Below, piece after piece: positions 24,101-52,519 of a DNA stretch of 64,000 nucleotides. This DNA comes from Zootoca vivipara (lineage: Eukaryota), in assembly GCF_963506605.1 (NCBI RefSeq), contig NC_083288.1, positions 53,258,001-53,322,000 on the forward strand, in the 5' to 3' direction. Position numbers and translations under genes: made by a program. Numbering within the stretch: the first letter of the stretch is position 1; each line of letters begins with the position of its first letter. The notes beneath the pieces were generated by a model. The model was given only the letters and a program-made list of their open reading frames with translations. It did no database searches and was not told the origin of the DNA.

Positions 24101-27100
24101 GGAAGAAAAGCAGGAGGGAGGGGTGAGACACCCCCCAAAGGCATCTTTGCCCAGCAGAGGAGGCCATGGAGTCCCGGATCTGCTGCACTCAGACAGTCTT
24201 AACCGTGGAATTTTATTTATTTGCAAGGGGGGTTTATTGGCTGAGGGGCAGAAGAGATATTTGTCGGCTCTGCTAGCATATCTGGGGGTGGTGGGGTGAT
24301 GTTCAGCTCCACCATCTCTACACCCCCTTCCTCTCAACATGCACCTCCAAACACCTGAAGGGCTGCCCCACGGAAGACAGAGGATCCAAATTGCAAGAAG
24401 GGAGATTCCGAATGAGCCGCAGGGGGAAATTTTGGAGAGGAAGAGCTGCTGCACAGCGGAAAGGGCTCCTTTGAAAGGGGAGGGACTCTCCTTCTTTGGA
24501 AATTTCTCAATGGAGGTGGGATGTTTACCTGCCAGGAATTCTTAACTGCGATTCCTGCATTGCAGGGGGCTTGGACTGGATGACCCTGGGGGGGGGGTCC
24601 CTCCCCACCCTACAATTCTGCGATTCTCTACTGTTCTGCGATTCCACGACTCACCTTGGTGAAGTTCCATCGCTGGATGAAATGCCGCGCAACGTCCCGT
24701 GCGGCCAGGCCGTGAACGGCCACCCCAACGTCCCTCCACGGCATCCGCGGAGTCTGGCACCTGTCAATGAAATCTGACCCACACCGGGCGTTAGCCCCCC
24801 AGGCAGCATGATTGGGGAGGTGCTGGGGCCCTGGAAGCCCCCACCATCAGGCTCCCTTGGGCCTGATCCAGCAGCCAGGCCTAAGGGGCATTGCAAAGTG
24901 GAGACACTGCAGAGGCTGGAAAAACGACCTCCTCCATCCTCTGGGGGCTTCCCCACATACCAGACCCAGTGATGGACCATGGGGCTTTGTTTTGGGGGGA
25001 AGGGAATATGCATGGCATAGCTGGATAGGGAGAAAATTTCTTCCCTCTCTCCTAACACTGGACATCCAACGAAGATGAATGTTGGAAGTTTTTGTTTGAA
25101 AAGGCATTCATAACACAGCACACAGTTGAACTATGGAACTCCTTGCCTCAGGACAAATTCCTGGAGGAGGAGAAGGCTACCAGTTGCTGGAAGCTGCAGG
25201 AGGGGGCTCATATCCTGCTTGGGGGGGGGGGGGGTTACTGGCACTAGGACTAGATGGGCCTGATCCTGCAGACACTTCTTACGCCTAGAAGCTGAGGGAG
25301 GGGTAACTTTCCAAAACGTAAAAGCAAATAAAATTCTTTTTTTGGGGGGTGCACCAGTACAGCTGCCCCCACCACCTTGCAACTTTGGGGGGGGGGCGCT
25401 GGTGTGTGGGTGCTTGCTTCTCCCCAGAGAACAGCCATCCCTCTGGGTCTGCACCCCTGGTTCCCTACTCAAAGCGAAGGGCCACCGTAGTTTTGCTGTT
25501 AAGACAAGAGCACCCACTTTGGAGGCGCAAGGTCTCGGGTTCAATTCCTGACAGCCCCTCCAGCAGGTCAGGCTGGGAGAGGCCCCCTGCCTAAACCCCT
25601 TCCCCTCCAGCACCCTCACCCACCTTCGAAGGGCTTGTCCAGCTGCACCCAGTCCTTGGCAATGAGGTTGCTGTAGTCCTTGCCCAGCCAGAGGCGCTGG
25701 TTGGAAGCCAGGTCAACGGGGGCTTCGTCCCCCCCTGGAAGGGCAGCCCCTCCGCCCTGAGAGAGAGAGGTGGTCAGCGGGAGGAGCAGGCGGCTACCAG
25801 CGTCCCTGTGGGGAGGGAGTGGGGCGAAAGAGGGAAAGGGAAAGCAACAAGAGGAGGAGAAGAGGAGGAACGAGTCAGAAACAGATGAGAGGGAGAAAGA
25901 GGAAAGCAAAAGGGGGCGATGGAAGCGTTCCTGGGCTCGGCGGCCACTAGGTGGCGCCCATTTGCCTGCTCTGAACCCGCTTGCCAGCCATTGGCCGAGC
26001 GTGGCTGTGATGTCACGGAATGTAGACGAATCAGAACAGCAGTTGCAGAGGAAAGCAAGAGGGAAAAGACCATTTGGTGCTTGACCAACGCATTTGGGGG
26101 CTCAGGGAGAGCCAAGAGCAGAGAGGAAGCAATTGAAGGGGGGAAATGAGACTGGGGATCTGGGGGCCAAAGAGGGAGCAACCTTCTGCCGCCCGGAAAA
26201 GGGGGGAACCAAGGAGAGGGACCCCCCCCCAATGCTACCTTGGGGGCCCGGCAGTCATCTCCCTCCAGGTCCGCCAGGCGGTACTCATGGGTGTCCCAGC
26301 GCCCATAGGCCAGATCCAGGCCGCCCAGGAAGGCCACAGACTGGTCCACCACCACCAGTTTCTCATGGTGGGCCCACAGGAAGACGATGGAGGAGACGTG
26401 GTCAGGGTGGCGCATCACCTGCGGGTGGGGGGAGAGACGTTTTGGGGTGGCTCAGTCTTGTGTGTGGGGCTGGCTCTGTGAGCCCACCCAGCCACCCTCC
26501 TGCTCTGAGCCCTGAGGCAGGGTGGTGTAGTGGTTAGAGAGTTGGACCTGGGAGACACACCCTCGGCCGTGAAGCTGTCTGGGGGTGGCCAGGGTTAGAA
26601 TAGTAGGATTGTAGAGTTGGAAGGGGCCCGAGGGTCATCTAGTCCAACCCCCTTCAATGCAGGAATCCCAGCCAGAGCATCCATGACAGATGACCATCCA
26701 ACTTCTGCTTTAAAATCTCCAAGTTGTAACTTGAAGCCATGAGTTCAAGTCCTGCCCTCCGGAGCAGCAGGAAACAAGCTTGCTCCCTCTTCCATGAGAT
26801 ACTGTGTTTCTCCGAAAATAAGACACCATCTTATATTGGTTTTCAAGAGGAGGTCCAGAGCTGTTCGACAGTGGAATTTGCTACCAAGGAGTGTGGTGGA
26901 GTCTCCTTCTTTGGAGGTCTTTAAGCAGAGGCTTGACAGGCATATGTCAAGAATGCTTTGATGGTGTTTCCTGCTTGGCAGGGGGTTGGACTGGATGGCC
27001 CTTGTGGTCTCTTCCAACTCTATGATTCTATATTTATTTTTCCTCAAAAAAACACACTATGGCTTATTGTCAGGGGACGTCTTATTTTTCTCCTCCTCCT

Positions 27101-30100
27101 CCTCCTCCTCCTCCTCCTCCTGCCGTGGCTGGCATTGCTGCTGCGCCTATCACTATGTCTTATTTTCGGGGTATGGCTTATATTCCTTGAATGCTTAAAA
27201 ATTCTGCTATGGTTTATTTTATGACTACGTCTTAAAATAGGGGAAACTTAAAATAGGGGTATTTGAGGATGGCTCTCATATCTCCTCCCAGTCTCCTCTT
27301 TTCCAGGCTAAGCATACCCAGCTCCTTCAACCATTCCTCATCAGGCTTGGTTTCCAGATCATCTTCATCGTTGTGTGGATTTAATGAGGACTAGGAACCA
27401 GGGTTCAAATCCCCCTCGGCCCTCAAGCTGACCAGGTCTGACCTTGAAGACCTGCCACTGGGAACTGCCCAGTTTGGCATAAACAGGGCTGTGGGGCTAC
27501 TTGGGACACAGAGCGACAACAGCGGGAAGACGGCAAAAGTGGGAGTTCCCTTACCTTGATGTTGGGGTGCAGCAGCATGAGGGCCCGTTTGCTGTAGTCG
27601 CTGTTGATGCCTAAGGCCAACCCCACCTCCTTGAAGAGCAGCACAGAGATGCGCACCCCCTGCTCCTGAAAGGATCCAAGAACGGCAGAGTTGAGAGGGA
27701 CCCCCAGCGGTCATCTAGCCCAACCCCCTGCGAAGCAAGAAGCACAGCTCAAGAGGCAAGGAGGAAAGATGGAGGGGGTGCAGAAAGACATCAGCAGCCG
27801 TGATGCGGGGGGGGGGGAGGAACGAAGGCGCCCCCACCCAACCCCAAACCTCAGGCAGGCGGCTGCTCACCGCTTTGTGTTTCAAGAGGAGGTCCAGCCT
27901 CCAATCGTCCGACTGCGCCGGGCGCTTCATGTAGATCTCCGGGCTGAGCCTGGGAATCACAGAATAATCATGGAGTTCAAAGGGACCCCCGAGGCTCATC
28001 TAGTCCAGCCCCCTGCAATGCAGGGAGCAAAGAGAGTGGAGCTGGGGGGGGGGGCTCCGTCCCACATTTAGCCTGTCTGCATTGGTTGCATTTTAAAAGC
28101 AAGAGCCCCCCCCCCCCGATCGTTTACCCCAGTTGCCTATTCAATTGGGATTAGCCTAGAAGCTGAACTGTGACCTCAAGGGTGGAATACAAATTTAACA
28201 AATAATATCAGGTGCTGCCCTCTGGCTGGGCACAGAGGTTTCGCACCCAAGTCCCCCACAGGCTGGCCTTGCGGAAAGAAGAGCAGGGAGGGGATCAGGG
28301 CGTCCATTTCTGGCACCCCTATTTTTGGACCAGGAATATCTTTTTTTTTTTTTGAAAAAGGAGAGAACATATTTATTATGAGGATTTATTACATTTGTAT
28401 ACCACCCATAGATCTCCGAGGGTGGGGGTTTCCACAACTTCAAAAATATATGGAGATGGGGGGGCACTTTGGGAAGCTAGGCAGCTCAGCCACCGTCCTC
28501 CTCTCCCCACCTCCAAGGCCGGGCGGCCCCCTCCCCAAGACCCCGGCACTGACCACCAGTCCGTGATGAAGATCTCCTCTTTCGCCTGCGCCACAGCCTC
28601 AGCCACCGCGGCAAAATATCCAGCGCCGTTTACAAACCTGGAGATGGGTCGCAGAGAAAGAGAAGGGTGAGGGACTGGCAGGGGGGGGGGAGAGAGAGGG
28701 GGACACTGGGGTCTGAGGACCCACCTGCCCAGACCACAGCCCCCAGTGCTCACCAGCGGGCAGGGGTCTCCTTGCGAAGGGGCACAAAGCCCCCGTGGCG
28801 ATGCAGCCGCAGGAAGTCTCTGCCCTTGCCCTCGGCGAGTTCGGTGATCTCCTGGCACCACCAGCAGGCCTGCCGGTAGCTGCTGCACTTCAGGACGAGA
28901 GACCTGGTTCGGGGAGGGCAGCGTAAGAGTCCAGTGGCCAGGCCAGGCCCAAAGGGGCCCAAGGAGGACCAGCGTCCGGTCCTTGCAGGGGCCCCTGATC
29001 TCGGAATCGAGATAGACTGCCTCCAGACCTGGAGCCATCTTTAAATATCTCGTGGAAGACAGAGCAAGCTTGTCTTCCCCTGCTCTGGAAGGTAGGACTC
29101 GAACCCATGGCTTCAAGTTGCGAGAAAGGAGATTCCGACTAAATATTATAAGGAATTTTCTGACAGTAAGAGTTGCTCAACTGTGGAACAGTCTCTCCCT
29201 CCTTGGAGTTTTTAGAATGGAGGTTTGGGTGGCCATCTGGTACGGATGCTTTAACTGATATTTATTGTTGTTGTTGTTGTTGTTATTCTGTTGGGAGCCA
29301 CCCAGAGTGGCTGGGGAAACCCAGGCAGATGGGCGGGGTATAAATAATAAATTTTATTATTATTATTCCTGCATTGCAGGGGGTTGGGCTAGATGACCCA
29401 TGGGGTCCCTTCAAACTCTACGATTCTGAGATTCTCCCATCCTCCTTCTCTTCATTCCTGGGAGGGGCAGGGCAGAAAATGCTCTTCCCCCTCGAGTCTC
29501 TTGAGTCAAGAGAGGCAGGTAAACAGCCAAGCCCTTCCACTCTCTTGAGCGATTTCTTCATCTTGGCTCAGAATCCGCCTCTCGGATGGGACCCTCACTT
29601 CAGGCGCCCTCCCCAATCTCCCCTGGCCGCGGGGACCCAGGCGTCCTGACCTGCAGGTGTTGTCGATGCGGACGCCGTGCTTGGTCTCGGTGGGCTTCTT
29701 GCCCACCTGGATGTTGAAGCCGGTGTCGAAGAGCAGCACGAAGGAGATGGCGCCCGACTCGGGCTTCAGGTAGAGGAGGAAGGAGTCTTTCACCACCAGC
29801 CACCTAGAAAGGGGTCCCAGAGGTGTAAAGGGGGGGCGAGAGAGAAGCACCCACACCACCCACCCCTCTCCCCACAGCAGGACCCTTGGGAGACTCACCT
29901 CTTCGACCAGCGGTAGCAGAACTGATGGCGCCCGGCGCAGTTGAGGCCCTGCAAGCGGTGGCCTCCAGACCGTTTCAGGATCATGCCCTCCCTGGAGAAA
30001 GAGGGGGAAGGCAGCGAGAGTTGCGGATCAGGGGCCACCCCACCTGTAGGGATCTGCGCCTAGCTTTCCGTGCTGGGTGCATGCAGAGGAAATGCAAAAT

Positions 30101-32110
30101 GTGGTCCAGAGCAGGGGACCCGCTTTAAAGTTTAAATAACTGCAGAGCTGAAAGGGGCTCTCTGGGGGTCATCCAGCCCAACCCCTGCCTTTCAGAGACC
30201 AAAGCCAATCGGGAAGGCAACTTTCTATCTATCCCTTGAGGATATCCCTCCCACAGCATGGCCAATGGCCAGGGTTGGAGATGTCCCACAATGTTGCTGG
30301 GGTTGGGCTAGATGACCCCCCAGGGTCCCTTCTATAATGTCTGGAGGAGAAATCCCGCTGGCTACCCTTGTCTGAAGGGTTGGGGGAGAGGAGAAAGGGG
30401 TCCTTTGCTCCCGGAAGAGGGGGGGGGAGAAATCACAGAACTGCAGAGTTGGGACCTTGAGAGCCATCTAGTCGCCGCTCCATAATCCTTGCTTTAAAAC
30501 CTTCAAGGATGGAGAGACCACCACCTTGGGAGGGAGGCCGTTCCCCCATCTGATGCAGGCTTCCTCAAACTCGGCCCTCCAGGTGTTTTTGGTCTACATC
30601 TCCCATGATCCCTACCTTGCAGGTCAGGCTCAAAGCATCTGGAGAGCTTTGTTTGAGGAGGCCTGATCTAATGGCTCCCATTGCCAGAAGCTTAGTCGAA
30701 ATTGGTTCTTAACTCTCTTAAAAGTTACACCTTTCAAGTGGTATATTTACTATATTTGAATTACGGGCGGTTTCATGCTTTGAGGTGGCTGCTCCCTTCT
30801 GCACGTTAATTTTATAAGCTTCCCAAAAGCCGTTTCGCCACCTAAGCGCCAAATATCCATTGGTATAGAACGCTCACAAACAGCTGGGCATCTGGATGCC
30901 AGAGGAGCCCCCAAACCTCTCCCCTGCCAGGGGTCCTTGCAGGCACTGGAGGGAAGGCTCTCCTGCCCCCTCGCAGGATCATGCCAAGGGGGCAGGCAGA
31001 AACACACACACACAGACACATAGCCAGGACCCCACTTCACTCACAGCCCTTTCGGTCCCAGGTCCGGGATGAAGGAGAGCGGACTCACATCTAGGAACTC
31101 TGCCTGCCCGAGAGGAGAGAGAAAAAAGCACCAGTCAGCGCCGGGAATCGCATTGCAGGGGGTTGGGCTAGATGACCCACCAGGGCCCTTCCGCCTGCGC
31201 ATTTCTAGGAAGAAGGCGGCTGGCGTATCGGGGGAATGCGCAGCTCAGGGAGGCGAGCAGAGGGAAAGGGAGCCCAGGGGAAGGGCCCCTCTGCCCCCCC
31301 AAGAGAAAATAGGACACCCTCCCTCCTGGCACGAGAAAAGGGGTGGCAGAGAAAAGGGGCATCACCATGGCATGGTAGTCGCGGTAGACGTTCATCTCCA
31401 GCAAAGTGTTGAGGTAATTCTCCAGCTGCTTCTGCAAGGAACAAGCGAGAAGACCCATTGCCTTGGGTTGTTGGGGATATCGCAACCCCAGCTCGCCGTG
31501 TGTCCCCGCTTAGCAGCCAGGCCAATGCTTTCCTCCTCTTCCTTTCCGCTGTTTGCAAACTAAGGGCCTTGGCGTTAATTGAAAAGCTCTCAAACGCATT
31601 GAAGGGCATTGTGCTGCGACTCCCGGAGCTGCCCAGCAGGTGGCGCTGCTGCTTTGCTTTCCTGTTCCACCGAACACGCTTCTTTCTCTCCGCTCCTCCT
31701 TCCTTGCCCCACATGCACCCAGACCCATGCCGTAGCCACAAACCTGTTTGCTGGATGGGCGCCGGGACACCTCCCCCCCGTGGGGCAAAGAGGGCAACCC
31801 CAGGACTGTTCCGTCGGACCGAGAACCCAGTGCGGCAAACCTGGGCGGGAGAGAGAGAGAGGCGACAAATGATGCTCTAGAACATAAAGGGAACACCTGC
31901 TGGATGAGGTCAGTGGCCCAGCAGCATCCTGTTCTCATAGGGGTCAAGCAGGTGCCCATTGTGGGGAACCGGCAAGCAGGATTCAAACACAAGAGCTGCT
32001 CTCCCCTCCTGCGGTTTCCAAGAACTGGGATTCAGCAGCATTTCCTGCTGTGGCAGAGCGTAGCCCCAGGGACTGGCAGCCATTGCTAACCCTCTCCTCC
32101 TCCTCCTCCT

Positions 32111-32147
<37 letters not shown>

Positions 32148-35100
32148 AGAATCTGCCTCATCCTCTTGGAAGCCATCCCAGTTGGAGGCCTCCTGTGGCA
32201 AGGAGTTCCACAGTTTAACTCAGCTCAACCTCCTCAGCTGCTTGACGAAGGACTCTGGGGCTTCCGGAGGGATGTCGCCCCTGCTCAGCATCCCCTCGGT
32301 TCTCCTTGGAAGAAGGAAAGCCCCTCTGGCAAGGGGAAAGTTTGCTTATTGTATAATAATATAAAGGAGGTCCAGTCCTTTTTGAAAGCCATCCAGTTTG
32401 GGGGCCAACTCTGCCTCCTGCACTTTAGTCCTTCCAGGCTGTGACACCTCACAATTTAATTTTATAATTACTCTTTCTTTCTTTTGTTTCAAAATTAATA
32501 GCAACAATAAATATTTATGCATGCAATTAAACAACCACAACTGTGGAATCCGCAGCAGGTTAGGCGTTTCCCAAAAACCGTTTTGACACGCCCAACACCC
32601 GAGACAAATCCTGAGCTCGAGTCTCTGACATCCTCCTCATGCGACTGAATATCCCTGCTGAAAAACACCTGTGGCCGTTTTGGCCCCACCTGGCTTCTCC
32701 GCTTGGGCTACTGGGAAAGATCACTTGGCTACCAAGTCCAGCCACAATGGGCTTGGACACACAAACAGAGACAGCAGATCCACCAACAGATGGACAAAGC
32801 CTCTTACCAACTGCGGTTGGTTCGACAGCTATGGCCGTTCCTGGACAGGGAAAGCGTGGTTCCTAAAATCCCAAAAATTGTAGAGTTGGAAGGGATCCGA
32901 GGGTCATCTAGTCCAACCCCCTGCAATGTGTTGGTGGCTTCAAGGCTGGACCACTGCAATGCACTCCCTTGCCCTTGATCCGGAAACTGCAGTTGGTGCA
33001 GGATGCGGACCCCACCAGCCAGAATTGGCACTCTATCTATCTACCTATAAATGTAAACTGGGCATGTGTCCACTTTTCTCCAAAACCGCTTGACCGATTA
33101 CGTTCAAATTTTGACACAACATCCAAAGCGAATATGAGAGTGACCATATACAGGTTGCGTAGATAAATGTCACACCTGGGCCATGTAAAACCCCCAAACC
33201 CCCGTGTTCCAGAACTCACAAATCACTCTCAAGTGCATGCTGGGAGCACAGGAGATGTTGCAAAACAGCGCCCTCTAGTGACGGCTACACTGGTACTGCA
33301 CCTAGGAAAGCTTCCCTTTCCACAGCATCTCGGCTTGGCTTTCCAGACTGGGCTGAGTGGAGGTGGGGACTCGCCTGGGTGGGGGATGGGGGGAGGAGGG
33401 GGCGGGATAGGTCATGGGTCGGGACAGGGTGGGGCCAATCACAGGGATGAGCTGGGGGTGGGGGAGGAGGGGCCGGGATGGATCATGGGTCGGGACAGGG
33501 TATCCCCAGCCACATGGATAAGCCAGGGGTGGGGGGAAGAGGGGGCGGCATACCTCATGGGTCAGGACAGGGTGGGGACAACCACAGGGATGGGCTGGAG
33601 GTGGGGGGAGGAGGGGACGGGATAACTCATGGGTCAGAAGAGGGTGGGGGGAGTCACAGGGATGAGCCTGTGTAAACAGAACACGCATAAAACATTTCAG
33701 CAAAATGAAGGGGGGCTCTGAAGGTGAGGGGAGTCTGAAGTGGGACTCCGAGGGTCCATTTAACAGGCTGAGCCACAGCAACGCGTGGCCGGGCCAGCTA
33801 GTAAATTCAATAAATAAATAAAGACTACAGGCGCTACACAATACCAGTTCTGCATTTGTAATAACTTGTGTGGCAGCGCCTGACCTTTGGGACTCCCTGC
33901 CACCTGAGACCCAGCAGGTGCCTGCCCTGTTCTTTTCCCCCTGCGCCTGCTAAAAAACATCCCTTGTTTACACAAGCCTGCCCAGACATGCAGACTGCCA
34001 GGGTACATTTTAATCTGCTTTTCCTTTATTGCTGATTTTATCTTTTGAATGCTGCTATTACTGATAACCTTATCGTTTTGTAAACTGCTCCGAGGGTTTA
34101 GGGCAGTGTTTCTCAACCAGTGTGCCTCCAGATGTTTTGGGACTACAACTCCCATCATCCCTAGCTAGCAAGACCAGTGGTCAGGAATGATGGGAGTTGT
34201 AGTCCCAAAACATCTGGAGGCACACTGGTTGAGAAACACTGGTTTAGGGGGAAAAAACAACAAGTGAGCGAGCGCAGTGTGTGTTTTATGGAATAAATAG
34301 ATAAACAAAATTAAAAACCCTTCAAATAGATAAATAAAATTAAGAACCCTTTGCCTGTGCAGATTCTCTCCTCACCGTGTCAGAGGGAGGAAACTCATCA
34401 AGATCCGGTGCCTCATGAGATCCCTGTGTAACTCCTGGAAGTGCTTGAATTTCTTCTTCATTGTCCAGGTGAACTCGCCGTGCGTCAGGCGCAAGGAGTA
34501 TACCGTGTTTGGCCGCACCTGCCCAGGAGAGAGAAGCAGGTGAACCCTTTGTGGTGGCCCGACAAATTCTTCTCCCCCCCCCAACCCTGGGGGTTGGACT
34601 AGATGGCCGTTGGAGGTCTCATCCTCTTTTAAAGCCATCCAAGATGGTGTCCATCACTGCCTCCTGTGGCAGGGAGTTCCGCAGTTTAGCTCTGCGCCGC
34701 ATGAAAAAGGACTTCCTTTTATCTATCCCAGTTCCTCCCAACATTCAGCTTCATCAGATGACCAGGAGTTTGGGTATCCCGAGAGAGAAGGAGGGAAACT
34801 TTTCTCTGTCTGCCAGAGCACCTCTAGAGGAGACCCTCGTGCTTTCTGAGTCAAGGGCCAAATTGCCGGCGAGGTGTCTGTGTGTGTGAGAGAGAGATGG
34901 ATCGCTGCTGTAAGGTTACGGAGGAATTGTGAAACGCCTTGGCCAACCAGCTCAGGGCACCTTGAGAAAAGCGGATATTGAGCTGCAAGACGTCTTGTGA
35001 AATCAGGGGATTATAGTCTCCAGAGGAAAGACAGGGGAGGGACACAGAAAAGGTGCTTGGTGAGGCCAAAGAATAAAAAGGAGAAGAGAAAGGGGGAGTG

Positions 35101-38003
35101 CAAAAGAAAACGGCAATTCTCGCTCACGAACCATCACCCAGTGAAGCTGAACAGTGGGAGATTCAGGACACGCAAAAGAAAATCCTTCTCTTGGATAATC
35201 TACGGAACTCCCTCCCACAGGAGGCAGGGATGGAGAGCTTGAGAAATGGATCGGACAAATGAATGGAGGAAAGGGCTCTCTGTGGTGCGGCTCGGCTTCC
35301 ACAGACGGAAGCAGTGATTCTTCTGAATGTGGGGTTGCAGGAAACCACAGGAAGGAAGAGTGTTCTTCTTGCACTCGGGTCCCGTGAGGGACATCTGGCT
35401 GGCCCCCGTGAGAACAGGAGGCTGGACTAGGCCCCCCCCCATTGGCCTCATGCAGCCTGGCTCTCCTGATGCCCCTCTGGAGGCTTCACCTGGGGCAAAA
35501 AACCCAGCTAGGCCCCCCCTCCAGCTATGGCACTAGCCTTCCCGTTTGCCCTCCCCTTTTCACACACACCCAATTCCGAGACATTCTGTGTTCGGAAACC
35601 CAAAACAGGTGGCGATGATGGGGTTGGACTAAATGACCCTTGGAGGCCCTTCCGACTCCACGATTCTACAAAAAAGCCAGGCTCAAGCTCCTAGAAGGGC
35701 TTCGAGAATATCTTGCTGGATCAGGCCAAAGGGGCCTGTCTGGTCCAGCAACCTGTTCTCGGGCATGGAGGCAAACCTGCAAGCAGAACACAAGCCCCAT
35801 AGCCGCTCTCCCCTCCCTCCTGCAACGGGTCAAATCCGCACCAAGCAGAAAGGGGGCTTCCTTCTCATCCGCCTCCACCACCAAGAAGGTTCAGCTTCTC
35901 CTTCCTCTTTCCCTTGCAATCCCCTTTATTTAGTGGCGCATCCAGACCCGGCCGGTTTGTTGTCTGCAAAACAAGCCGCCTCTGCTCAGTGTCATGAGGA
36001 GCCAGAAGAGGAGGAAGAGGAAGAGGAGGAAGAAGAGGAGGAGGAGGAAGAAGAAGAAGAGGAGGAGGAGGAGCAGGAGGAAGAGGCCTCCCTCACCCTC
36101 CTCAAAGGAGACCCAGTGGCCTGGCAGAGAGGCAGAGCCTGCTGGCAAAGGGCACCCGTTGAACTCCCTGTCCATTGAGGAGCTCAGGAAGGGAGAAGCC
36201 ACAGCTATCTAGGCAATTCAAACATACGTGATATGAGACAGCTAAGGAAAATGAGTAAACAAACAAACATCAGGAAAGGATGGGTGGGAAGTCCAGAAGA
36301 AACTATGTATACAGTATATATTTTATATATATTTAAAAAAACCTGTATATGATGACAAACACAATAAAAATCACTTTTTAAAAAATGGGGGAAGCAACGG
36401 CTGGTGGCAGCAGGAGTAGAAGGGGAAAGGTCTGGGTGCAGGTTGCAGGATCAGGCCAGAGATCCGGGCAAAGCGCCCCCAAAATGGCCAATAGCCACGG
36501 CAGGCAAAGGATTTTGACATGGTCATTTTTTGGGGGGAGGGAATCTGCACAGCTGTTTCTGTTTGGCTGAGAGACGACCAGTCAATGAAAGACACGGAAT
36601 TATGAAGGCAGGAGAAAGAAGATTCCACCTAAACATTAGGAAGAACTTCCTGACAGTAAGAGCTGTTTGGCAGTGGAATTTGCTGCCAAGGAGTGTGGTG
36701 GAGTCTCCTTCTTTGGAGGTCTTTAAGCAGAGGCTTGACAGGCATATGTCAAGAATGCTTTGATGGTGTTTCCTGCTTGGCAGGGGGTTGGACTGGATGG
36801 CCCTTGTGGTCTCTTCCAACTCTATGATTCTATGATTCTAGGAAGAGCCTTGCAGGGTCTGGCCCATGGCCCCTCTTGGCCAGCATTCTCACAGGGGCCA
36901 GCCAAGGGCCTGTGATGGGAAAACGGCAAGCAGGATTGAAGCCCAAGAGCCCCTCTCCCCTCCTAGGGTTTCCAGAAACGGGTATTGAGAAGCATCTCTG
37001 CTTCCAAAAGAGGAGGCAGGGCAGAGCCATCCTGGCTAGGTCTCATCCTCTTTTAAAGCCACCCAGGTTGGTGGCCACCCCTGCCTCCAGTGGGAGGGAG
37101 TTCCACCGTCTAACTCCGCACGGTGTGAAGAAGTCCTTCCTTTCTCCTTCTGCCCCAAATCCTCCAACATTCAGCTTCCTCAATGCCCACAAGCCTCTCG
37201 GTGCGGACTGATTAAGAAATCTGTGCAGCGCTTTGTTTTGTTGAGAAACAGCTTGTCAACAAAAGGTACACCTCATTTGCGTAACGGACATGGACGGGGC
37301 AAGGGAGGGACGGCCTATTTGCATACGATTTGCATGGGAGATGCCCACGGCTCATCCGCATGGCACCTGCTTTAGAAACATAGCATTGTAGAGTTGGAAG
37401 GTACCCCCAAGGGTCATCTAGTCCAACCCCCTGCAATTCAGGAATCTCAGCTAAAGCATCTGTGACAGGGGGTCACCCAATTACTGCTTAAAAACCTGAG
37501 TGTCACCTCCCGAGGGAGACCATTTACACGCAGGGGAGTGTAATCTGAGGACCTGGGAGAGACCCGGGTTCAGATCCCCCGACTTGACCAAAAAGCTCTC
37601 ATTGGACTCACCTCTCAGCCTGACCCACCTCACAGGGTTGTTGCTGGGATTCCTTGAGGACTAGGACCTTGGACAGAGGTCCCACCGGGTGTGAGCTTGG
37701 GGGCCAGTCACTGCCTCTCAGTCTAAGCTACTTAGTACCATAGTTAAAGCACTCACAAATTCCTAAAAGGGATTGGGGACTGGAGCAACAGTGTGGGGTA
37801 GTGGTTAGAGTGTCGGATGAGTTCCTTGGAGAGAACAGGGTTCAAATCCCTGCACACCTGGGGCCACGTCCCTGCCTCTCAGCCTGAGGGTTGTTGCAGG
37901 GATTAAATGAGGAATGGGGAATTAAACTGGGTATAGGCCACCTTGAGCTCCTGGGAGAAAAAGGTGGGATATCAATAATAACAATAATAACTATTATTAT
38001 TAC

Positions 38004-38048
<45 letters not shown>

Positions 38049-39232
38049 ACCCCGCCCATCTGGCTGGGTTTCCCCAGCCACTCTGGGCGGCTTCCAGAAG
38101 GAACTTGGCTTCTCGCAGGGAGAATAAGCAAGCAAAGAGATAAAATAAGGCTACATGGCCAACTCCTGGCTCAGTGGTCAGGGAGCGTTTCACAGAACCG
38201 TAGAAGTGTAGAGCTGGAAGGGACCCAAAGGTCATCTAGTCCAACCCCCTGCATTGGGGGAATCCTATTTGCGCTAGAATCCTGTTCACGGGTTTCCCAC
38301 TGAGGCACCTGGTTGGCCGCTGTGAGGACAGGGTGCGGGGCTAGCTGGGCCCCCCTTGGGCCTGATCCTGCTGCTGCTGCTGCTGCTGCTGCTCTCTTGG
38401 TGCTTGAGAAAGGTCGGGGGTTTTTTTTTTGCTAACTGGGTATTTGCTCCTTCCCTCCCTCTCCTGATTCTCTTTGTCTCAACCACCACAGGTGTAACCT
38501 GAGACTCACAGGACACCAAAGCCCAGCTCTGACTTGTCTGCTCAGGGCTGCAGGATCCTCCCTGGAGCAGAACCGGGAGGGGGAGGGGGAGGCAGTGGTA
38601 TCATCCCCCCTCCCAAAAGCCAAAGGTTGGCTGGCTGGTAAACCATAGGGATGTTGTGCTGTTTTTTTCCATTCCCACCCCCCACTCCCAAGGGAAAAAA
38701 ATAAAATAAAAGATATATGAAACTCTGCAGCTGATGTTCTGAATTAGGAAGTCCAGCTTGCCTTTGGAAAATATATATCATTTGACTGAGTCTGTTAATT
38801 TAATTGCTTTGATTCCTGCCTTGCAGGGGGTTGGCCTAGATGAGCCTTGGGGTGCCCCTTCCGCCCCCACGCACCCCCCCCACTTCTCCCCTAGCCCCCT
38901 GCTCTTACCTTGGAACCGCTGGCATATCTCTCGGCGCTCTCCACCCGCACAGTGACGGGGACCCCCCTAAGGAAAAGGGGTCCCTGAGAGCGGAGTGGCT
39001 TCCGCTCGTAGACGGCCAGAAAGGGGCTGAGGTCACCTGGGGAGCAAGGGAGGCAGGGACAGTTAGGGAACCCCAAACTCCTGCCCCTGCTAACCCATAA
39101 CCTACAGAAAGCGGGGTGCATCATCAACTGACCTGGCGCCTCGTCCCGGCGGAGACCATCTCTCTCGTCCGCTTCCTGGTCCGAGTCGTCCAGGCTCTCC
39201 CCGCCGGGGTGGGGTCGCTCCAAGGTCAGCAT
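18103..39232 (-). CDS. PLD2: Phospholipase D2, complete, 24 coding exons, 2796 nt / 931 aa
   Basis: Exons in gene order (minus strand): 39133-39232, 38909-39036, 34376-34518, 31744-31840, 31366-31431, 31045-31103, 29899-29991, 29651-29803, 28754-28903, 28554-28637, 27871-27949, 27555-27665, 26239-26418, 25624-25756, 24655-24773, 23977-24093, 23448-23552, 22392-22480, 20783-20896, 20081-20130, 19481-19615, 19218-19371, 18599-18710, 18103-18327. All introns GT-AG with consistent phase. Motifs: PX ([21 protein letters not shown]), PH ([11 protein letters not shown]), HKD1 (HHEKLVVVD), PRMPWRD...[17 protein letters not shown]2 (HSKMLIAD...IGSANIN), C-terminal EVWT. No PLD1 loop insert. Confidence 0.97.
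20556..20670. repeat. Degenerate 31-bp tandem repeat (about 3.5 units)
   Basis: AGATCTCACAGGGATCTGGGAAGCTTGCAC-like units. Confidence 0.6.
21398..21984. mobile_element. Non-autonomous Tc1/mariner (Tigger/pogo-like) element
   Basis: TA|CAATGGTACCTTGGTT ... AACCAAGGTACCACTG|TA: about 16-bp TIRs with TA target duplication; internal repeated GGAACGGATTAA; no transposase. Confidence 0.88.
25941..25959 (+). promoter_or_regulatory. CTCF core motif
   Basis: CGGCCACTAGGTGGCGCCC, a near-perfect match to the YGGCCASYAGRKGGCRSY consensus; motif only, binding untested. Confidence 0.65.
26866..27030 (+). mobile_element. CR1 3' fragment
   Basis: Near-identical to 36660-36830. Confidence 0.88.
29035..29260 (+). 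mobile_element. CR1 3' fragment
   Basis: Encodes [31 protein letters not shown]. Confidence 0.8.
30556..30665. mobile_element. Degraded hAT MITE (same family)
   Basis: CAGGCTTCCTCAAAC ... GTTTGAGGAGGCCTG; TSD ATCTGATG / ATCTAATG. Confidence 0.75.
31630..31648 (+). promoter_or_regulatory. CTCF core motif
   Basis: TGCCCAGCAGGTGGCGCTG; motif only. Confidence 0.55.
33036..33801 (+). mobile_element. Non-autonomous Helitron with an internal G-rich minisatellite
   Basis: A|TCTATCTACC 5' end; 3' hairpin GCCACAGCAACGCGTGGC followed 7 nt later by CTAG|T; no TSD. About four copies of a 70-72-bp unit (TCATGGGTC starting near 33413, 33483, 33555, 33627). Confidence 0.85.
34104..34241. mobile_element. 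138-bp hAT MITE with a different TIR but the same internal core
   Basis: TIRs CAGTGTTTCTCAACCAGTGTG; near-perfect hairpin; perfect TSD GTTTAGGG. Confidence 0.92.
36006..36086 (+). repeat. (GAR)n polypurine tract
   Basis: About 80 nt of mixed GAG/GAA in a PLD2 intron. Confidence 0.9.
36608..36840 (+). mobile_element. CR1 3' fragment
   Basis: Encodes [24 protein letters not shown]; ends TCTATGATTCTATGATTCTA; nearly identical to the 3' ends of the copies at 26866 and 53967. Confidence 0.92.
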
Positions 39233-41484
39233 GGGGCCGTCCTGCTGGGGTGCGGGAGGAGGAGCAAAAAGAACCCAGGAGTCCGAGCCCTCATGCCAGC
39301 CCTAATGGCTCTCGGCCGGAGAAGAAGGTAGCCTTCTCCCGTCTCCAAGCACTTCGGCACAGGAAACTCTCTCTCTCCCCCTCTCTCTCCTTGATTCTGC
39401 TGGAAATTTTTGCGCACAGGCAGGCAGTTCCTGCCCCACCCTGCCTTGTCCGCCTGACTCACGCTCTGGGAAAGGGGGGCCATCCCACCCTCTCGCTGGT
39501 CCCAGGCGGGTCTGGATGCCGGACAGACGTGTTGGGCAGGAAGGGCAGGCTGGCTGGATGTCCAAGGATCCCCGCAGGGTGAGGCCAAAGGGGGTCCCCA
39601 TCTTGGCCCAGCCTCCTGCCCTCACAGGCAGCTAAACGTCCCAAAGGACCCAGCAATCGAGATAGACTGCCTCTGCACCAGGAGGGTCTATTAAGGACAG
39701 CAGAAAGGACGTGCCGCTGGAAGAGGCCAAAGGGGGTCCTCACCTTAGCCTGGCACCCTAGAATACCCCAAAGGGAAGCCCCCCCCCAGGCAGGATCCGA
39801 GCGCAAGAGGAACGCTATCCCCTCTGGCATTCGGAAGCATTTCCTGCTTCCAACTTAGCTCCCCAACAGGCAGCCCCCTTCCTCCTCCTCCAGGAATTTG
39901 TCCCATCCTCCTGCGGCAGTGAGTTCCGCAGTTCAACTCTGCGTTGTGCCAGGGACCCCGGGAGTGCTGCTGCCAGTCTGTGCAGACATTATGGGGTGAA
40001 ATGGGCCTGATGCAAGGCAACTCTCTCCGATGCCAGAGGACTCTGCAAATTGGTGGGTAGGATACTAGGGGGAGAGGCACAGTATCATCTGCGTAACATC
40101 TGGACAGGCTCCTTTTGGGAGGGACAGGCTTTTCTCTTGGGGGCTGCTCTCCGCCTGGAGGAGGGGCACTTGTGGGGCTGCGTGGGGGCAGTGGGGAGTG
40201 AGCTCCAGTGGTTTGCCAGCTCCTGGTTCTTGGTTCACCAAGTCACAGTGGACTATGTCTTGGGCTCCTGTGAGAGTGCAGGTAAATCAGGCCCTTCAAA
40301 CACCAGTATTTCAGGATTCGCACTGGCTGCCTAAGACAAGGCGCTGGTGTGAGTTCATAAACCTCTATATGACAGAGGCAGAGTGGTGTAGTGGTAAGTG
40401 TCAGACAACGGTAGGACCAGGGAGAGACGAGGGTTCAAATCCCCCTCCTCGGCAACCGTGAAGCTCCCTGGCGGTGAGTTTGGGGGCGAGTCCCTGCCTT
40501 CTCTCTCAGTCTGACCTACCCAACAGGGCTGTTGTAGGGGATCCCCTGAGGTGCGGGGTGGAGAACCACGCTCCTTGGAGAAGGAAGGTGGGATAACGCA
40601 ATTAATTTGTCCTTTAATTAATGACTTGGGACCCAAATCTGCAAAGGAATGCTTCTCCCAATGATGCCCCCCCCCCGAAATCCTCTTGGAGAAGGACAAA
40701 TACTGTAATAGGCCCCAAATCCTTTCGCTGCAGTAAAGAGGCTGTTTTAATTCTCTAGGAGCGGCGCAACGGTTTGGGTGTTTTGCGGGAAGATTGTTTT
40801 GGGGTTTGGTTTTGCGGCCCTGCTAAACTCCCACCGCCCAGGAATTATATGGGGTGAAGGGCAGCCGGGAGGAGCAGCCCCTTGGAGGGGGAAAGAGGAA
40901 TGTCAGGGGAGAGAGTCTCAACTCTGCATGGCGTCTGCTCTCACCCTCTCTGTAAGAATCATAGAATTGTAGCGTTGGGACCCCTGAGGGTCATCTAGTC
41001 CAACCCCCTGTGATGCCGGAACCTAGCTTGATCTTCTGCCCCCCCCTCCAAATTGGGAGCTCAGCTGGGCAACCTCGGGAGCGTGCAAGCCCAGCCGAAA
41101 TGCCACTTGCCTGGCACCCACCACCTGGCACCGCACCCTCCAAGCGACACATCCCCATACTGGAAGGTTAAAAGAGGATCCCCACCCCCCGACCTGAAAT
41201 GAAACTGGGAATCCCAGAATTACGGGAGCCCCTTGCCTGGAGGATGCAGGTTGCTTCCAGGCCCAGAAATGGGGGGAACTGGAGATTCTTCCATTTCAGG
41301 GAGGGTTGGACTAGATGACCCCTGGGGGACCCTTCCAGCTCTACCATTCTAAGACTCTGTGGCCTCGGAAAGGGATGGACTTTCTCTTTCATTGGAGGTT
41401 TTTTAAGAGAGTTTGGGTGGCCACCTGTCAGGGGTTCTTTTGCTGAGGTTCCTGGGGGTGGGGGTAGCGTGGACTAACATGTAC

Positions 41485-41620
41485 GTCAACAGGTAGATCG
41501 TGATCTTCCGGTAGATCACTGGATCCCCCCCCAAAAAACTGAACCCCCCCAAAAGGGGGTAGATCACTTCCAGTTTTTAACTCTGTGTAGATCACAGTCT
41601 CTTGGGAGTTGGCCACCCCT
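41485..41620. mobile_element. Partial hAT-like element with four GTAGATC subterminal repeats
   Basis: GTAGATC occurs four times and the segment ends GAGTTGGCCACCCCT; it interrupts a CR1-tail copy. Confidence 0.5.
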
Positions 41621-42630: not shown

Positions 42631-43025
42631 CCAGGCGTCCGGGCCCCTGTCCCAAGCGCGGTGCTCCCCACACACCCGGCCTCAGTTTCCGAGGAGGAGG
42701 AGGAGGAAGTACCGCCCTAATCCCCCCCCCCCAACCCCGCTTGCCAAATTCCTCTCCGAGTAGCGGAGATTTTGACTCATCCCGAGTCATAAGGAGGGGG
42801 GGGGGCAAGAGAAAGGGGAGGGGCCTCGGGATTTTCCTGGGTGGGGAAGGGGGTCTTTCCGAAGCAAGAGCCCTTCTGACCTGGAGGGAGGAGGGCAAGC
42901 ACCCTGGACCTCCTGGGATTTTCCGTGGGGTGGGGAGGGAGGGAGGAAGGACCTCGTGGAAATTTCCAGGTGGGGGAGGGAGGCCAGGTGGGGGGTCTGT
43001 CTGTCTCCCGCTTCCCGCGGCTCAC

Positions 43026-43260
43026 CTGGGGCGGAGGGACCTGCAGGGACCGGCGGGGGGCGAGCAGGGCGCCGTCGCTGCTGCTGCAGCTGCTGGGAAA
43101 CCGGCCCGGCGGTGGGAGCGGGGAGGGAGCTGGGGGCCGTCCCGGGGAGGAAGGAGGGCCGTCCCAGCCCCGCCCAGCCGCCTGCCGCCCAGAGGGCCCC
43201 GAGCCATGTGCAGAGGGTCGGCGGCGCCGTCCCTGCCCTTCCGCCCGACCCCGGCCAGGC
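43026..43260 (-). other. PLD2: Putative non-coding first exon of PLD2
   Basis: CAG|GTGAG donor at 43026/43025 inside a CpG island. The ATG exon begins with an acceptor at 39242, so an upstream exon is required. The 5' end is approximate. Confidence 0.55.
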
Positions 43261-44406
43261 CGAGGTCGGGCTGCGGGGCAGGATTAGGTCCCCCACTTCC
43301 CTCGCGAAATAGGGGTGCTGGTGCTGAGGCCTCTTGAGCATGCACAGAGCGCCTTCGCTTCCCGGAACCAGAGACGCGCTTTTCTGCTCTCGGAACGGCA
43401 GAGTTGGACGGGACGCCGGAGGGTCATCTAGCGCAACCCCGGCCGGCGGGGCCATTTTGGGGCACTTTTGCTTTTTATTTTGAAATCCCACCCACCACCC
43501 CCATGAAAAAAGGAGGGACCGATTTGTTTTATTAGACGCTTACCAAGGTCTCCTCCTGCACACACACACACACACGCACGCGCACCCCACACCTGTTTTT
43601 CCCGAGTTTGTGGCAGAACTAGAGAGCTGGAAGGGTCCCCCGGGGTCATCCAGCGCAACCCCGCGCAATGCAACGGGCGGCGTTCCTCGTTTTGTCCTGC
43701 CGCTGCCTAGATGGCGGATCCTCTCTCTGCCCCCCTCCCGCCCCCGAAAAACACTGCTTTTCTCCTTGGATGCTTAGAAGGGGCGTCTCGCGCCTTTGGG
43801 GGGCTCCCAGCCGCCCTGCGCGCTCCCAGGTGCGTCGGGGGTGCTGGAGAGGAGCAGGTTCATTTGGGGTGCTTCCCCACCCCCCACCCCCGCAGGCTCC
43901 AGCTGGTCGGAGTGAGTGAGTTAGGGAGGCGGTACCGGGCGCTGTTTGCCAAAGGAGGCGGGGAGGGGGGCGGCTCCCCTGGCCTGGCCCACCCAGGGCG
44001 AGAAATTCCCCGTCTTGACACTCCGGGAGCCCGAGAGAGGCGCGGGCAGGTAAGCGGGGACCCTGGGGAGACCCCACACCAGGGCCAAAGGGAAAGAAAC
44101 CTTGGGGGGGGGTCTCTACTTTGAGGTAGGGGTGGGGAGAAAGAGGCCAGCAGCGGGGCAGAGCCCTGAAGGCAGAACCCCGCCCTTTGCAAATGTGAAA
44201 GGGGCTTTGTAAAAAATTTTGGGGGGAGACAGATGCTTTGATGTTCTCTCTGTGCTCCCCACCCAAAGCCCCCTACCTTATTCTCCTCTGCAATCCTCAG
44301 TGTTTGCAGGGGTGTGACAATGGTGGGCAGGGAGGGCAACCCCCCCCCAGGTTCCACATGCCCCCCCACCTCTCACGTCTCTCTGTCTGCCTCAGGATCC
44401 GACAAG

Positions 44407-44930
44407 ATGGGGTCAAAGTTCCGCAGCTGTTTCCCCCGGGGCAGGCGCTCCAGGCGCCACAGCAAGAAGGAGAAGGAGCCCCCCGCAGGTAAGGAGGGTG
44501 TCCCAGGCCCCCCAAGTCCCTTGTACTCCTCTTGGGCGACGTCTTCCTGACCTAGGTGCAGTCCACCCCCCACGGCAGGGTTGTGGAGATCTCCATCCCA
44601 GGTGTTTCCCCCCTCAGTGGTCCTTGGGTGCCTTTTTGGAGAATCACCAAATTGTAGAGTTGGGACCCCAGGTGGTCATCCAGACCAACCCCGTGAAGAG
44701 CAGGGACTGCAAACTCTTTTTGAGCCTCTCCTCCTCCTTCTCCACCTGCAGCAGCAGCAGCTTCCTCCTCCTCCTCCTCCGACACCCCCGAAGCTGCAGC
44801 ATCTCGGACACGCTCCACGCCGTCCACCAGCAGCGAGACAGACTCCCAGAGTGGACGGGCCTACTTCAGCGGAAAGGCCAGGGTCTCCTTCCGCCACCAG
44901 CTGGACTCCGAGAGGGAAGCGACCAGCTGA
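44407..44930 (+). CDS. C17orf114: C17orf114 orthologue, small protein of about 86 aa; two coding exons 44407-44488 and 44752-44930
   Basis: Acceptor at 44394-95, ATG 44407 (AAG-ATG-G), donor G|GTAAG at 44489; acceptor after a pyrimidine tract at 44750-51; TGA 44928-30; AATAAA 45324. Product MGSKFRSCFPRGRRSRRHSKKEKEPPA-AAAASSSSSSDTPEAAASRTRSTPSTSSETDSQSGRAYFSGKARVSFRHQLDSEREATS. The AYFSxKARxSFRHQL block and the N-terminal MGxK..CFP match human C17orf114 as I recall it, which also lies between PSMB6 and PLD2 on the opposite strand. Confidence 0.85.
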
Positions 44931-46048
44931 GCTCCCATCTTCAGAGGATCACTCCCCCCACCCCAGCAGGTGTCCCTGGAGCAGGCAGGCGGAGCTAGGG
45001 CCCCACAGGAGACTGCTGGCGATAAAGAGTGGGGGGTCGGTCCAGGTCCCCCACTTCCCCCCCCAGCAAACTCGTTGACAGCAGAGTGCAGCCTGCGTGT
45101 TGGAAGCTACTTGGATGAGAAGAGGCGGCTTGGCTGCTTCCCCAACCCCCCCCCCCAACACGGAAGATGGGGAGGTCAAATAAGGGGTCAGACGCAAGCC
45201 AGGATTTGGGCAGCGACCCCAAACTGGAGCGGACTAGTTGTGGGGCTCAGATGGGTGTAACCAGAAGTAGAGAGGTTTGCAGGCTTGGGTCCCGATCCAG
45301 AGCCCCAGCAGCAATTATGGAGCAATAAAAAAGTGTTACTCCCCCATCCTCGTTTCAGATGCTTATTTTTTTTTTTTTGAATCAGGGTTGGGCTAGATGA
45401 CCCATGGTGCCCCCTTCCAAGACTCCGAGAGTCAAGCTCCCGCTGCCGTCCCTCCTGTACTTCTCAAACCAGGCCCGGCTTACAAGGGGTAGGTGGGGTG
45501 TGTGTGTCTGGGGCTCCAAACAGAGGGAGGGGGCAGGCCCCAATTCTTTTTGCCACGTTGAGCTGCTGGGCAGGGGGGCCAGCCAGTGTGGCGAGCTGCT
45601 TGCGTGTCAACGCCTCTCCTCCGGCGCTGGCGCTGGGCCCAGCCCGCCCGCCCGGTCCAAGCAGAAGGCAGGCTGGAGCAGGAAAGAGGGAAGGGCCGAG
45701 TGCGAAACCAGACACCCCACCCACCAAAACAGGCAGGCGGCGGAGAAGAAAACACGTCGGGCCGTTAAAAGTGAACATTAAAGGACGGCAGGCCCCAAAA
45801 TTGTGGTTCAAGGGCCTGTGTTTTCTGCATTGCGTCTTCACCCCCCCAAAAAAGGGGAGTTTGGGAGTGGGCAGCCTGGGCAGGCCGGCGGCACCTTCCT
45901 CCTAGGCTGGGCGTAACCCCTTATCTCACCAGGGTAATCACAGCCTGGGAACAATTGCGGGCAGGATGGAGAAACCTCAGGCAGGAGCAGAGGGAGGGAG
46001 GCAGGCAGGCCTGCGGAGTCAGCCACCCTCACAGGGGACGGCAGGCAC

Positions 46049-46066: not shown

Positions 46067-46109
46067 CATGGGAGGGCACAGGGAGAGCAGGGCGCTGTGC
46101 TCTTAAGAG

Positions 46110-46485
46110 CAGGGGTCCCCAGACTACGGCCCGGGGGCCGGATGCGGCCCAATTAGCATGCCAATCCGGCCCACGACGACCCCCGCCGCCCGCCGCTGCC
46201 GCCCGCTCTTACGGTGCGCAGCGCGGCAGCGCTCTTCCGGGTTGGGAAAAAAGCGCCGAAAATCCTTTGTGCGCATGCGTATGGGCCTCTCCCGACCCGG
46301 AAGAAGTCATTTCTAGTGCACTTCCGGGTCGGGGGAGGCCCACGCGCATGCGCACAACGGATTTTCAGCGCTTTTCCCACCCTGGAAGCGCGCCGCCGCG
46401 CCAGTAAGCGCCCCCACCCGCCGGCCCGCCGCGCGATCGGCGCGGTGGGAACCGGCCCAAACACCGGTAAGTCTGGGGACCCCTG
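46110..46485. mobile_element. Non-autonomous hAT element (376 bp) with an internal 180-bp palindrome
   Basis: TIRs CAGGGGTCCCCAGACT ... AGTCTGGGGACCCCTG; perfect 8-bp TSD CTTAAGAG at 46102-46109 and 46486-46493. Confidence 0.92.

Positions 46486-47239: not shown

Positions 47240-52519
<5,280 letters not shown>

Follow-up and report, generated by a model that had tools for sequence, protein, structure and literature searches.

The C17orf114 microprotein of Zootoca vivipara: a predicted membrane-anchored docking protein and likely detached tail of a C2orf72-like, predicted pseudo-GTPase

The C17orf114 locus and its transcript

The window, i.e. the whole stretch of 64,000 nucleotides that was analysed, carries C17orf114 on the plus strand, and the coordinates of its features are collected in Table 1. 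The spliced open reading frame (44407-44488 and 44752-44930, 261 nt) encodes 86 aa with the three-part anatomy described in the earlier note. Both the reading frame and the name of the gene were confirmed, as the product is 100% identical to the Zootoca vivipara RefSeq model XP_034991802.1 and 90% identical to the Podarcis 'C17orf114 homolog', and the joints of the frame were found in RNA. The coding joint 44488>44752 (GT..AG) is covered by 20 raw reads in run X24 and by none in runs X22 and X23, and it is also present in an assembled RNA contig of run X2; the spliced transcript on which the earlier proposal depended was thus seen. The 5' joint 44049>44396 (GT..AG) is covered by six reads in X24, one read in X23 and the X2 contig. 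This contig spans 44002-45344, and its 3' end lies just past the AATAAA signal at 45324. All expression data come from the one contig and from three raw runs, which belong to one study and were sampled to about 6% each. The ATG at 44407 is the earliest in the transcript as seen, has A at -3 and G at +4, and is preceded by an in-frame stop.

Table 1. Features of the C17orf114 locus and its neighbours (positions within the window).
Feature	Position	Strand	Remarks
PLD2 coding exons seen	~19400..39246	-	predicted start codon 39232
CpG-rich spacer, PLD2/C17orf114	43001..44000		GC 0.71/0.64; CpG o/e 0.75/0.66
Candidate non-coding PLD2 first exon	43026..43250	-	GT donor after 43026; low minus-strand depth in X23, X24
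C17orf114 non-coding exon 1	44002..44049	+	contig and GT..AG joint; no ATG; 5' end is the contig limit
C17orf114 exon 2	44396..44488	+	codons 1-27 after an 11-nt leader; both ends in phase 1; RNA joints
Residues 1-23, M-G-x-K-x-x-x-C-F-P and polybasic run	44407..44475	+	predicted S-acyl/basic membrane anchor; Cys8 codon 44428-44430
C17orf114 exon 3	44752..45344	+	codons 28-86, stop 44928-44930, 3' UTR, AATAAA 45324; RNA joints
Ser/Thr cluster R46-S55 (R-x-x-S-T-x-S-x-x-S)	44805..44834	+	kept outside mammals; predicted phosphorylation cluster
Block Y65-D79, Y-F-S-x-K-A-R-[VL]-S-F-R-H-[QE]-[LM]-D	44862..44906	+	15 residues; predicted docking motif
R71-V72-S73-F74, RVxF-like core	44880..44891	+	S73 also fits [RK]-x-S-hydrophobic-[RK]
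T85, penultimate residue	44922..44924	+	candidate C-terminal mode III 14-3-3-type site
Proteasome beta subunit, last exons	47240-47713	-	convergent with C17orf114

Four tandem CAG acceptors at 44749-44760 preserve the frame (83-86 aa), and only the first is used in the reads here; Podarcis models include isoforms of 86 and 85 aa. The 115-aa RefSeq isoform X1 requires sequence of intron 1 and was rejected, as the depth at 44187-44303 is zero in all four runs. Two linker variants between individuals were observed, a silent C>A change at 44780 in X24 and a G>A change at 44781 (Asp>Asn) in X2.

PLD2 and other neighbours

The minus-strand gene to the left was recognised as PLD2 by two HKD motifs, a PX domain scoring above the Pfam cut-off and CT..AC joints. 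PLD2 and C17orf114 are divergent, with start codons about 5.2 kb apart (39232 vs 44407). The proteasome beta-type exons to the right are presumably those of PSMB6, and we take the human gene order to place C17orf114 between PSMB6 and PLD2; the order in the window fits this arrangement.

The head-to-head arrangement claimed earlier stands as a divergent layout with a CpG-rich spacer. A distance of less than 1 kb between the 5' ends is unsupported: reads are present on the candidate PLD2 exon ending at 43026, but no joint at that position was found among the joints listed. The proposed co-regulation is not supported, since the joint reads of the two genes, although few, are out of step in the same three runs (3, 5 and 4 for PLD2 and 0, 0 and 20 for C17orf114 in X22, X23 and X24, respectively). 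The link to PLD2 is probably one of neighbourhood only. Phosphatidic acid inhibits PP1 according to part of a review (PMC6351798), and nothing that we found ties this inhibition to C17orf114.

In the cyprinid Leuciscus, one gene model (P0320) has an L6/TM4SF gene fused upstream of the C17orf114 reading frame. The fusion probably arose in annotation; it shows which gene lies next to C17orf114 locally and suggests that the upstream neighbour is a different one there.

The C17orf114 family

The two profile searches for C17orf114 yielded 92 and 72 matches. The homologues come from squamates, turtles, alligator, amphibians, ray-finned fish, rays, sharks and mammals; no bird occurs among the named rows, many rows being without names. 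The alignment used below has 112 rows, made up of 87 of the 92 matches of the first search and 25 from other searches. Of the 92, three were dropped as isoform duplicates and two as read-through models; fragments and long fusions were also excluded. As frogs and teleosts are over-represented, the 112 rows are not independent.

Four features are conserved: the N-terminal M-G-x-K-x-[L]-x-C-F-P with its basic run, the block Y65-D79, a Thr in the penultimate position and, except in mammals, a Ser/Thr cluster in the linker. The disordered character of the linker was upheld, and within its cluster R46 is found in 72, S49 in 81, T50 in 80, S52 in 84 and S55 in 83 of the 112 rows. The penultimate Thr is present in 111/112 rows despite tail lengths of 9-13 residues. 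A definition of the mode III 14-3-3 site is given in part of PMC2860806; the penultimate Thr fits such a site, from which we infer putative 14-3-3 binding. A C-terminal PDZ motif was rejected as a general feature, the last residue being S, N, T, G, D or A in 29/112 rows and position -2 of such a motif Ala in 52.

Teleosts also carry a second, faster-evolving copy (zebrafish si:ch211-237l4.6; P0285, P0088, P0261, P0262, P0264 and others). Its core reads KARISYRH, KARVVYRH or KACVALRH, with K, R and H fixed.

Pfam gave no family for the window exons, XP_034991802.1 or the homologue P0279, and only scattered weak matches over the 112 members. Sequence searches of the PDB gave no matches with alignment A2 and one chance match with alignment A6, and the Atlas had no usable match to the bovine protein.

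The N-terminal Cys/basic motif

The N-terminus combines Cys8 (106/112 rows), Phe9 (101/112), Gly2 (104/112) and Pro10 (97/112) with a basic run, 10 of the first 25 residues being K or R, and the Cys/basic character given to it in the earlier note is supported. Aromatic residues after Cys-Phe-Pro are present in most fish and amphibians and absent in lizards, and Gly2 is absent from one turtle row.

The PROSITE-type rule for myristoylation requires Gly2 and a small residue at position 6, and exceptions to it exist. Its consensus was found in only 6 of the 96 rows with a clear start, all with a mammalian-type start; residue 6 is Leu in 79 rows and Arg in Zootoca vivipara, which argues against the myristoylation suggested before. 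Since so few rows agree with the rule, S-acylation of Cys8 together with the charge of the basic run is the likelier general membrane anchor, as far as can be predicted from sequence.

The C-terminal block Y65-D79

The conservation of the C-terminal block was confirmed and, for the block as a whole, exceeds chance. K69, R75 and H76 are invariant (112/112), followed by A70 (111), S67 and S73 (108 each), Y65 and R71 (106 each) and F74 (98). Hydrophobic or aromatic residues alternate with polar or basic ones in the manner of a strand, and the hydrophobic moment in four sequences was 0.62-0.76 at 170 degrees vs 0.22-0.44 at 100 degrees. The block is single-copy, its one match in the genome being the locus itself.

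Within the block, the lizard KARVSF agrees with the loose RVxF rule [RK]x0-1[VI]{P}[FW] through R71-V72-S73-F74, for which the chance background in six-frame reading frames of the window is 0.09-0.18 per 86 aa. The alignment of orthologues proposed earlier kept Gly2, Cys8 and an R[VL]SF-like core (93/112 rows with Leu allowed), but strict RVxF only in 57/112, and so the canonical motif did not hold as a conserved feature; without the nine rows of the divergent teleost copy, the counts are 57/103 and 93/103. The Val position is occupied by V in 65, L in 41, I in 4 and M in 2 rows, and the Phe position by F in 98, L in 8, Y in 5 and C in 1 (n = 112). Every one of the 15 mammal-type rows has Leu in place of Val, as do two sharks, a gecko and many teleosts; the change has hence recurred in several lineages, and the KARLSF given in the earlier note was recovered among the mammalian matches. 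Leu stands at both anchors in four rows, three of them named cyprinids (KARLSLRH), and His replaces the core Arg in sturgeon and bamboo shark. The residue before the core Arg is Ala in 111/112 rows, and K or R two positions before Val was found in 0/112.

The Leu and His variation within the core, set beside the invariant K69, R75 and H76, points to selection on a 15-residue motif in which the RVxF-like core is contained and of which it is not the explanation.

Relation to C2orf72

Gene models that end in C17orf114 and have a long upstream part were found in horn shark (357 aa), two bichirs (513 and 535 aa) and tarpon (636 aa), and the record of the horn shark form is named 'C2orf72 homolog'. 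Their upstream parts are homologous, with 28-33% identity and E values of 1e-13 to 1e-20 between lineages. A search of the lizard genome with the shark long form gave one significant locus among 12 listed, C5:4826233 (E 3.9e-5). The gene at this locus matches DUF4630 (PF15443) with 25.9 bits vs a cut-off of 25, and, based on this family and on the name of the shark record, we call it C2orf72. Moreover, hhalign of the lizard C2orf72 against the long forms gave P 88% and E 2.9e-6.

The next predicted exon of the lizard C2orf72 encodes FLQCIPWARRSRRK, and the C17orf114 family HMM matched it with E 6e-5 in 30 kb. The HMM trimmed to the microprotein matched this Cys/basic exon with E 0.005, whereas the best controls were E 2.3 on the opposite strand and E 0.34 elsewhere in the window. 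The exon is of phase 1 at both ends, the same as C17orf114 exon 2. The lizard C2orf72 thus consists of a large domain, the Cys/basic exon, in which the motif is internal, and a short last exon, in which no counterpart of the Y65-D79 block is visible.

The neighbourhoods of the two loci are also alike. Genes of the nicotinic-receptor family lie on C13 about 100 kb from C17orf114, and a pair of them is found on C5 at 1.2 Mb from C2orf72, as expected of duplicated blocks; we take these neighbours to be CHRNE and CHRND/CHRNG. Arrestin, tried as a second pair of paralogues, gave no match on C13 or C5 among the 10 listed.

No remnant of a DUF4630-type domain was found in the window (six frames, stops read through), Pfam DUF4630 does not match the long fish forms, the extension of a gecko model is without a Pfam match, and the pointers to DUF4630 in the Atlas, with scores below 0.9, serve as a lead only. 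The long forms are gene models, which can fuse neighbours, as in the Leuciscus case. However, a fusion that occurs in three lineages and copies the layout of the paralogue is best read, despite possible artefacts, as the ancestral gene. C17orf114 is then likely a C-terminal tail that became detached from a C2orf72-like protein, a predicted pseudo-GTPase.

Predicted fold of the C2orf72 domain

The model of the lizard C2orf72 domain, built from five sequences, has a pLDDT of 65 and a pTM of 0.67. In a structure search, ARL10B (Z 11.3, rmsd 3.3, 154 aligned residues) came first among 48,161 chains, and 49 of the 50 rows listed were GTPases or entries containing a GTPase, a few of them presumably so; the exception was a TIR domain (Z 8.8). 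Foldseek with the same model placed an Arf-like protein first and also listed Toc34 and CENP-M, all of them weak matches; neither for the lizard C2orf72 nor for the shark long-form model did a match reach E <= 0.001. The latter model, of low confidence (pLDDT 41), had only generic alpha/beta matches, the best with Z 7.6. The P-loop pattern GxxxxGK[ST] (G1) and the G4 pattern [NT]KxD are absent in all five domains. The C2orf72 domain is accordingly predicted to have a GTPase fold without a P-loop, like CENP-M-type pseudo-GTPases and Arf-like G domains in fold, and the lizard microprotein differs from these in being entirely without the domain.

Small GTPases carry Cys/basic anchors in the variable tail after the G domain. 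With a GTPase-like fold of the lost domain, C17orf114 would correspond to such a tail following a G domain, and it may resemble the tails of the RGK family.

Proposed mechanism and possible partners

C17orf114 may be read as a Cys/basic membrane tether derived from the tail of a pseudo-GTPase and carrying a phospho-switched docking strand, a reading to which we give a probability of roughly 55%. S-acylated Cys8 and the basic run would hold the protein on acidic membranes, the 15-residue strand would dock one partner protein, phosphorylation of Ser73 by a PKC-type kinase would end the docking, and the C-terminus with phosphorylated T85 would form a 14-3-3-type site. The pattern [RK]-x-S-hydrophobic-[RK], which is a PKC-type phosphorylation consensus, is found at S73 in 103/112 rows.

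PP1 is the best named partner, and its putative binding through a weak, non-canonical RVxF is a tentative proposal, less likely than not in any form. KARVSF lies within a disordered chain and within its sole conserved block, and the core with Leu allowed is widespread. In the RVxF interactors represented by NIPP1 peptides in part of PMC10698503, R-V-S-F likewise lies in a disordered region with a phosphorylatable residue at x, and phosphorylation inside the motif lowers PP1 binding. The same sections state that Val>Leu substantially weakens binding and that PP1 prefers a basic residue directly before the core. In C17orf114, by contrast, Val and Phe vary while the flanking K, A, R and H stay, and there is no basic residue before the core; the NIPP1 reference peptide shown there also has none, and its absence here thus leaves PP1 binding possible. 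Part of PMC4794898 puts chance matches to the short RVxF rule at about 25% of proteins and gives an extended consensus requiring two basic residues before the core, with which the Ala of C17orf114 disagrees. Residues 55-86 modelled in complex with the catalytic domain of an animal PP1, which shares 94-95% identity with pieces of vertebrate PP1, scored 0.23 and 0.19 vs a mark of 0.34; made without alignments or controls, the model is evidence neither way. It is rather doubtful that the freed tail of a pseudo-GTPase, having lost the G domain, would serve as a lipid-anchored, PKC-switched module that brings PP1 to membranes by an extended non-canonical RVxF.

The model of the earlier note, a myristoylated PP1 subunit with a canonical RVxF, co-regulated with PLD2 in a module of phosphatidic acid and PP1, we consider unlikely. 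The inhibition of PP1 by phosphatidic acid, the divergent layout and the CpG-rich spacer speak for it, as does the RVxF-like core, but it is opposed by the recurrent Leu, by KARLSLRH in cyprinids and His in sturgeon and bamboo shark, by the near-universal Ala, by the rarity of the myristoylation consensus and the internal position of the Cys/basic motif in C2orf72, by the discordant joint reads and by the TM4SF gene upstream in the cyprinid model.

An improbable alternative is that the block is a degenerate CRIB-like strand pairing with a small GTPase or a C2orf72-type domain, in a small acylated effector of the architecture known from the CDC42SE/SPEC proteins. This would account for the invariant His and suits an origin beside a GTPase-fold domain. 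CRIB spacing is matched by S67 and F74-x-H76, joined by a second His in the 15 mammal-type rows, and the profile score of 15.2 against five lizard CRIB sequences beat 100/100 column shuffles. However, the comparison was picked after the fact, the hhalign probability is 33% over eight columns, and the CRIB core I-S-x-P-x2-4-F-x-H-x-x-H-V is poorly represented (Pro 0/112, second His 15/112, F-x-H 98/112). Moreover, a Pfam search of the 112 members at E <= 10 gave 30 families, and PBD is not one of the 25 that were shown.

The least probable is a MARCKS-like electrostatic switch, in which the Phe/basic block would bind phosphatidic acid, PIP2 or calmodulin and PKC would release it without a structured protein dock: the PKC-type site, the aromatic/basic alternation and the second, N-terminal basic patch agree with it, but the block has just 3-5 basic residues, and charge would not require the Ala, His and Thr to be invariant or the Asp to be nearly so.

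Comparison with known systems and significance

The closest working analogy to the tether with a docking strand is calcimembrin (C16orf74), which may serve as a precedent for a lipid-anchored, phosphatase-docking microprotein. As described in part of PMC12612047, it is a disordered microprotein with N-terminal Gly and Cys and a phosphorylation-sensitive phosphatase-docking motif; unlike for C17orf114, myristoylation and S-acylation have been demonstrated for it, and the phosphatase that it binds, via PxIxIT/LxVP, is calcineurin. It is doubtful whether C17orf114 is myristoylated outside mammals, and its docking partner is putative; the likeness is put forward as an analogy. C2orf72 (DUF4630, PF15443), in turn, has the domain in common with the long fish forms, the Cys/basic exon of the same phase and a similar neighbourhood; it differs in keeping the large domain and in a last exon without trace of Y65-D79.

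In the literature, searched mostly as open-access main texts, C17orf114 was found only as a gene-list mention (PMC12318406), with no functional paper; the zebrafish copy is named in at least two papers, in one of which (PMC5752677) it is an entry in an expression table. By title and beginning of abstract, papers on RVxF microproteins and on a bidirectional PLD2 promoter gave nothing on C17orf114. C2orf72 is named in 44 papers; that which mentions it most often among those listed (10.1101/2024.11.05.622056) calls it uncharacterised and, in its accessible part, does not use 'GTPase'. In the literature searched, no pairing of C2orf72 or DUF4630 with 'pseudoGTPase' and no assignment of C2orf72 to the GTPase fold were found.

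C17orf114 is a real gene, annotated across every jawed vertebrate group sampled and yet functionally unstudied. The anatomy given in the earlier note is right and its mechanism partly supported; the paralogy with C2orf72, the predicted pseudo-GTPase ancestor, a motif larger than RVxF and the penultimate Thr are new beyond it. Two unstudied genes, C17orf114 and C2orf72, thereby become one testable family. Its likely history would represent a route to microproteins in which a folded domain is lost and the anchor and tail are retained, unlike birth from non-coding DNA. Three residues unchanged from sharks to mammals within a 15-residue motif point to a single ancient partner. If that partner is PP1, the tolerance of Leu at both anchors would widen the rules by which PP1 interactors are predicted. 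If the reading with PP1 is true, C17orf114 would be the PP1 counterpart of calcimembrin, and the C2orf72 family a previously unrecognised vertebrate pseudo-GTPase.

Other RNA signals in the window

Run X22 has unbroken plus-strand reads over 43134-44069, upstream of the first exon as seen, and none on the C17orf114 coding exons; either the first exon is longer than seen, or a separate promoter-upstream transcript overlaps the candidate PLD2 exon. Exon 3 and the 3' UTR (44772-45356) are covered in run X24 by many first mates on the plus strand, which reflects antisense RNA or imperfect strand labelling. Very deep, part-matching reads with loose ends at 46100-46350, 36600-36840, 37400-37460, 38000-38100 and 41500-41600 mark interspersed repeats rather than local expression.
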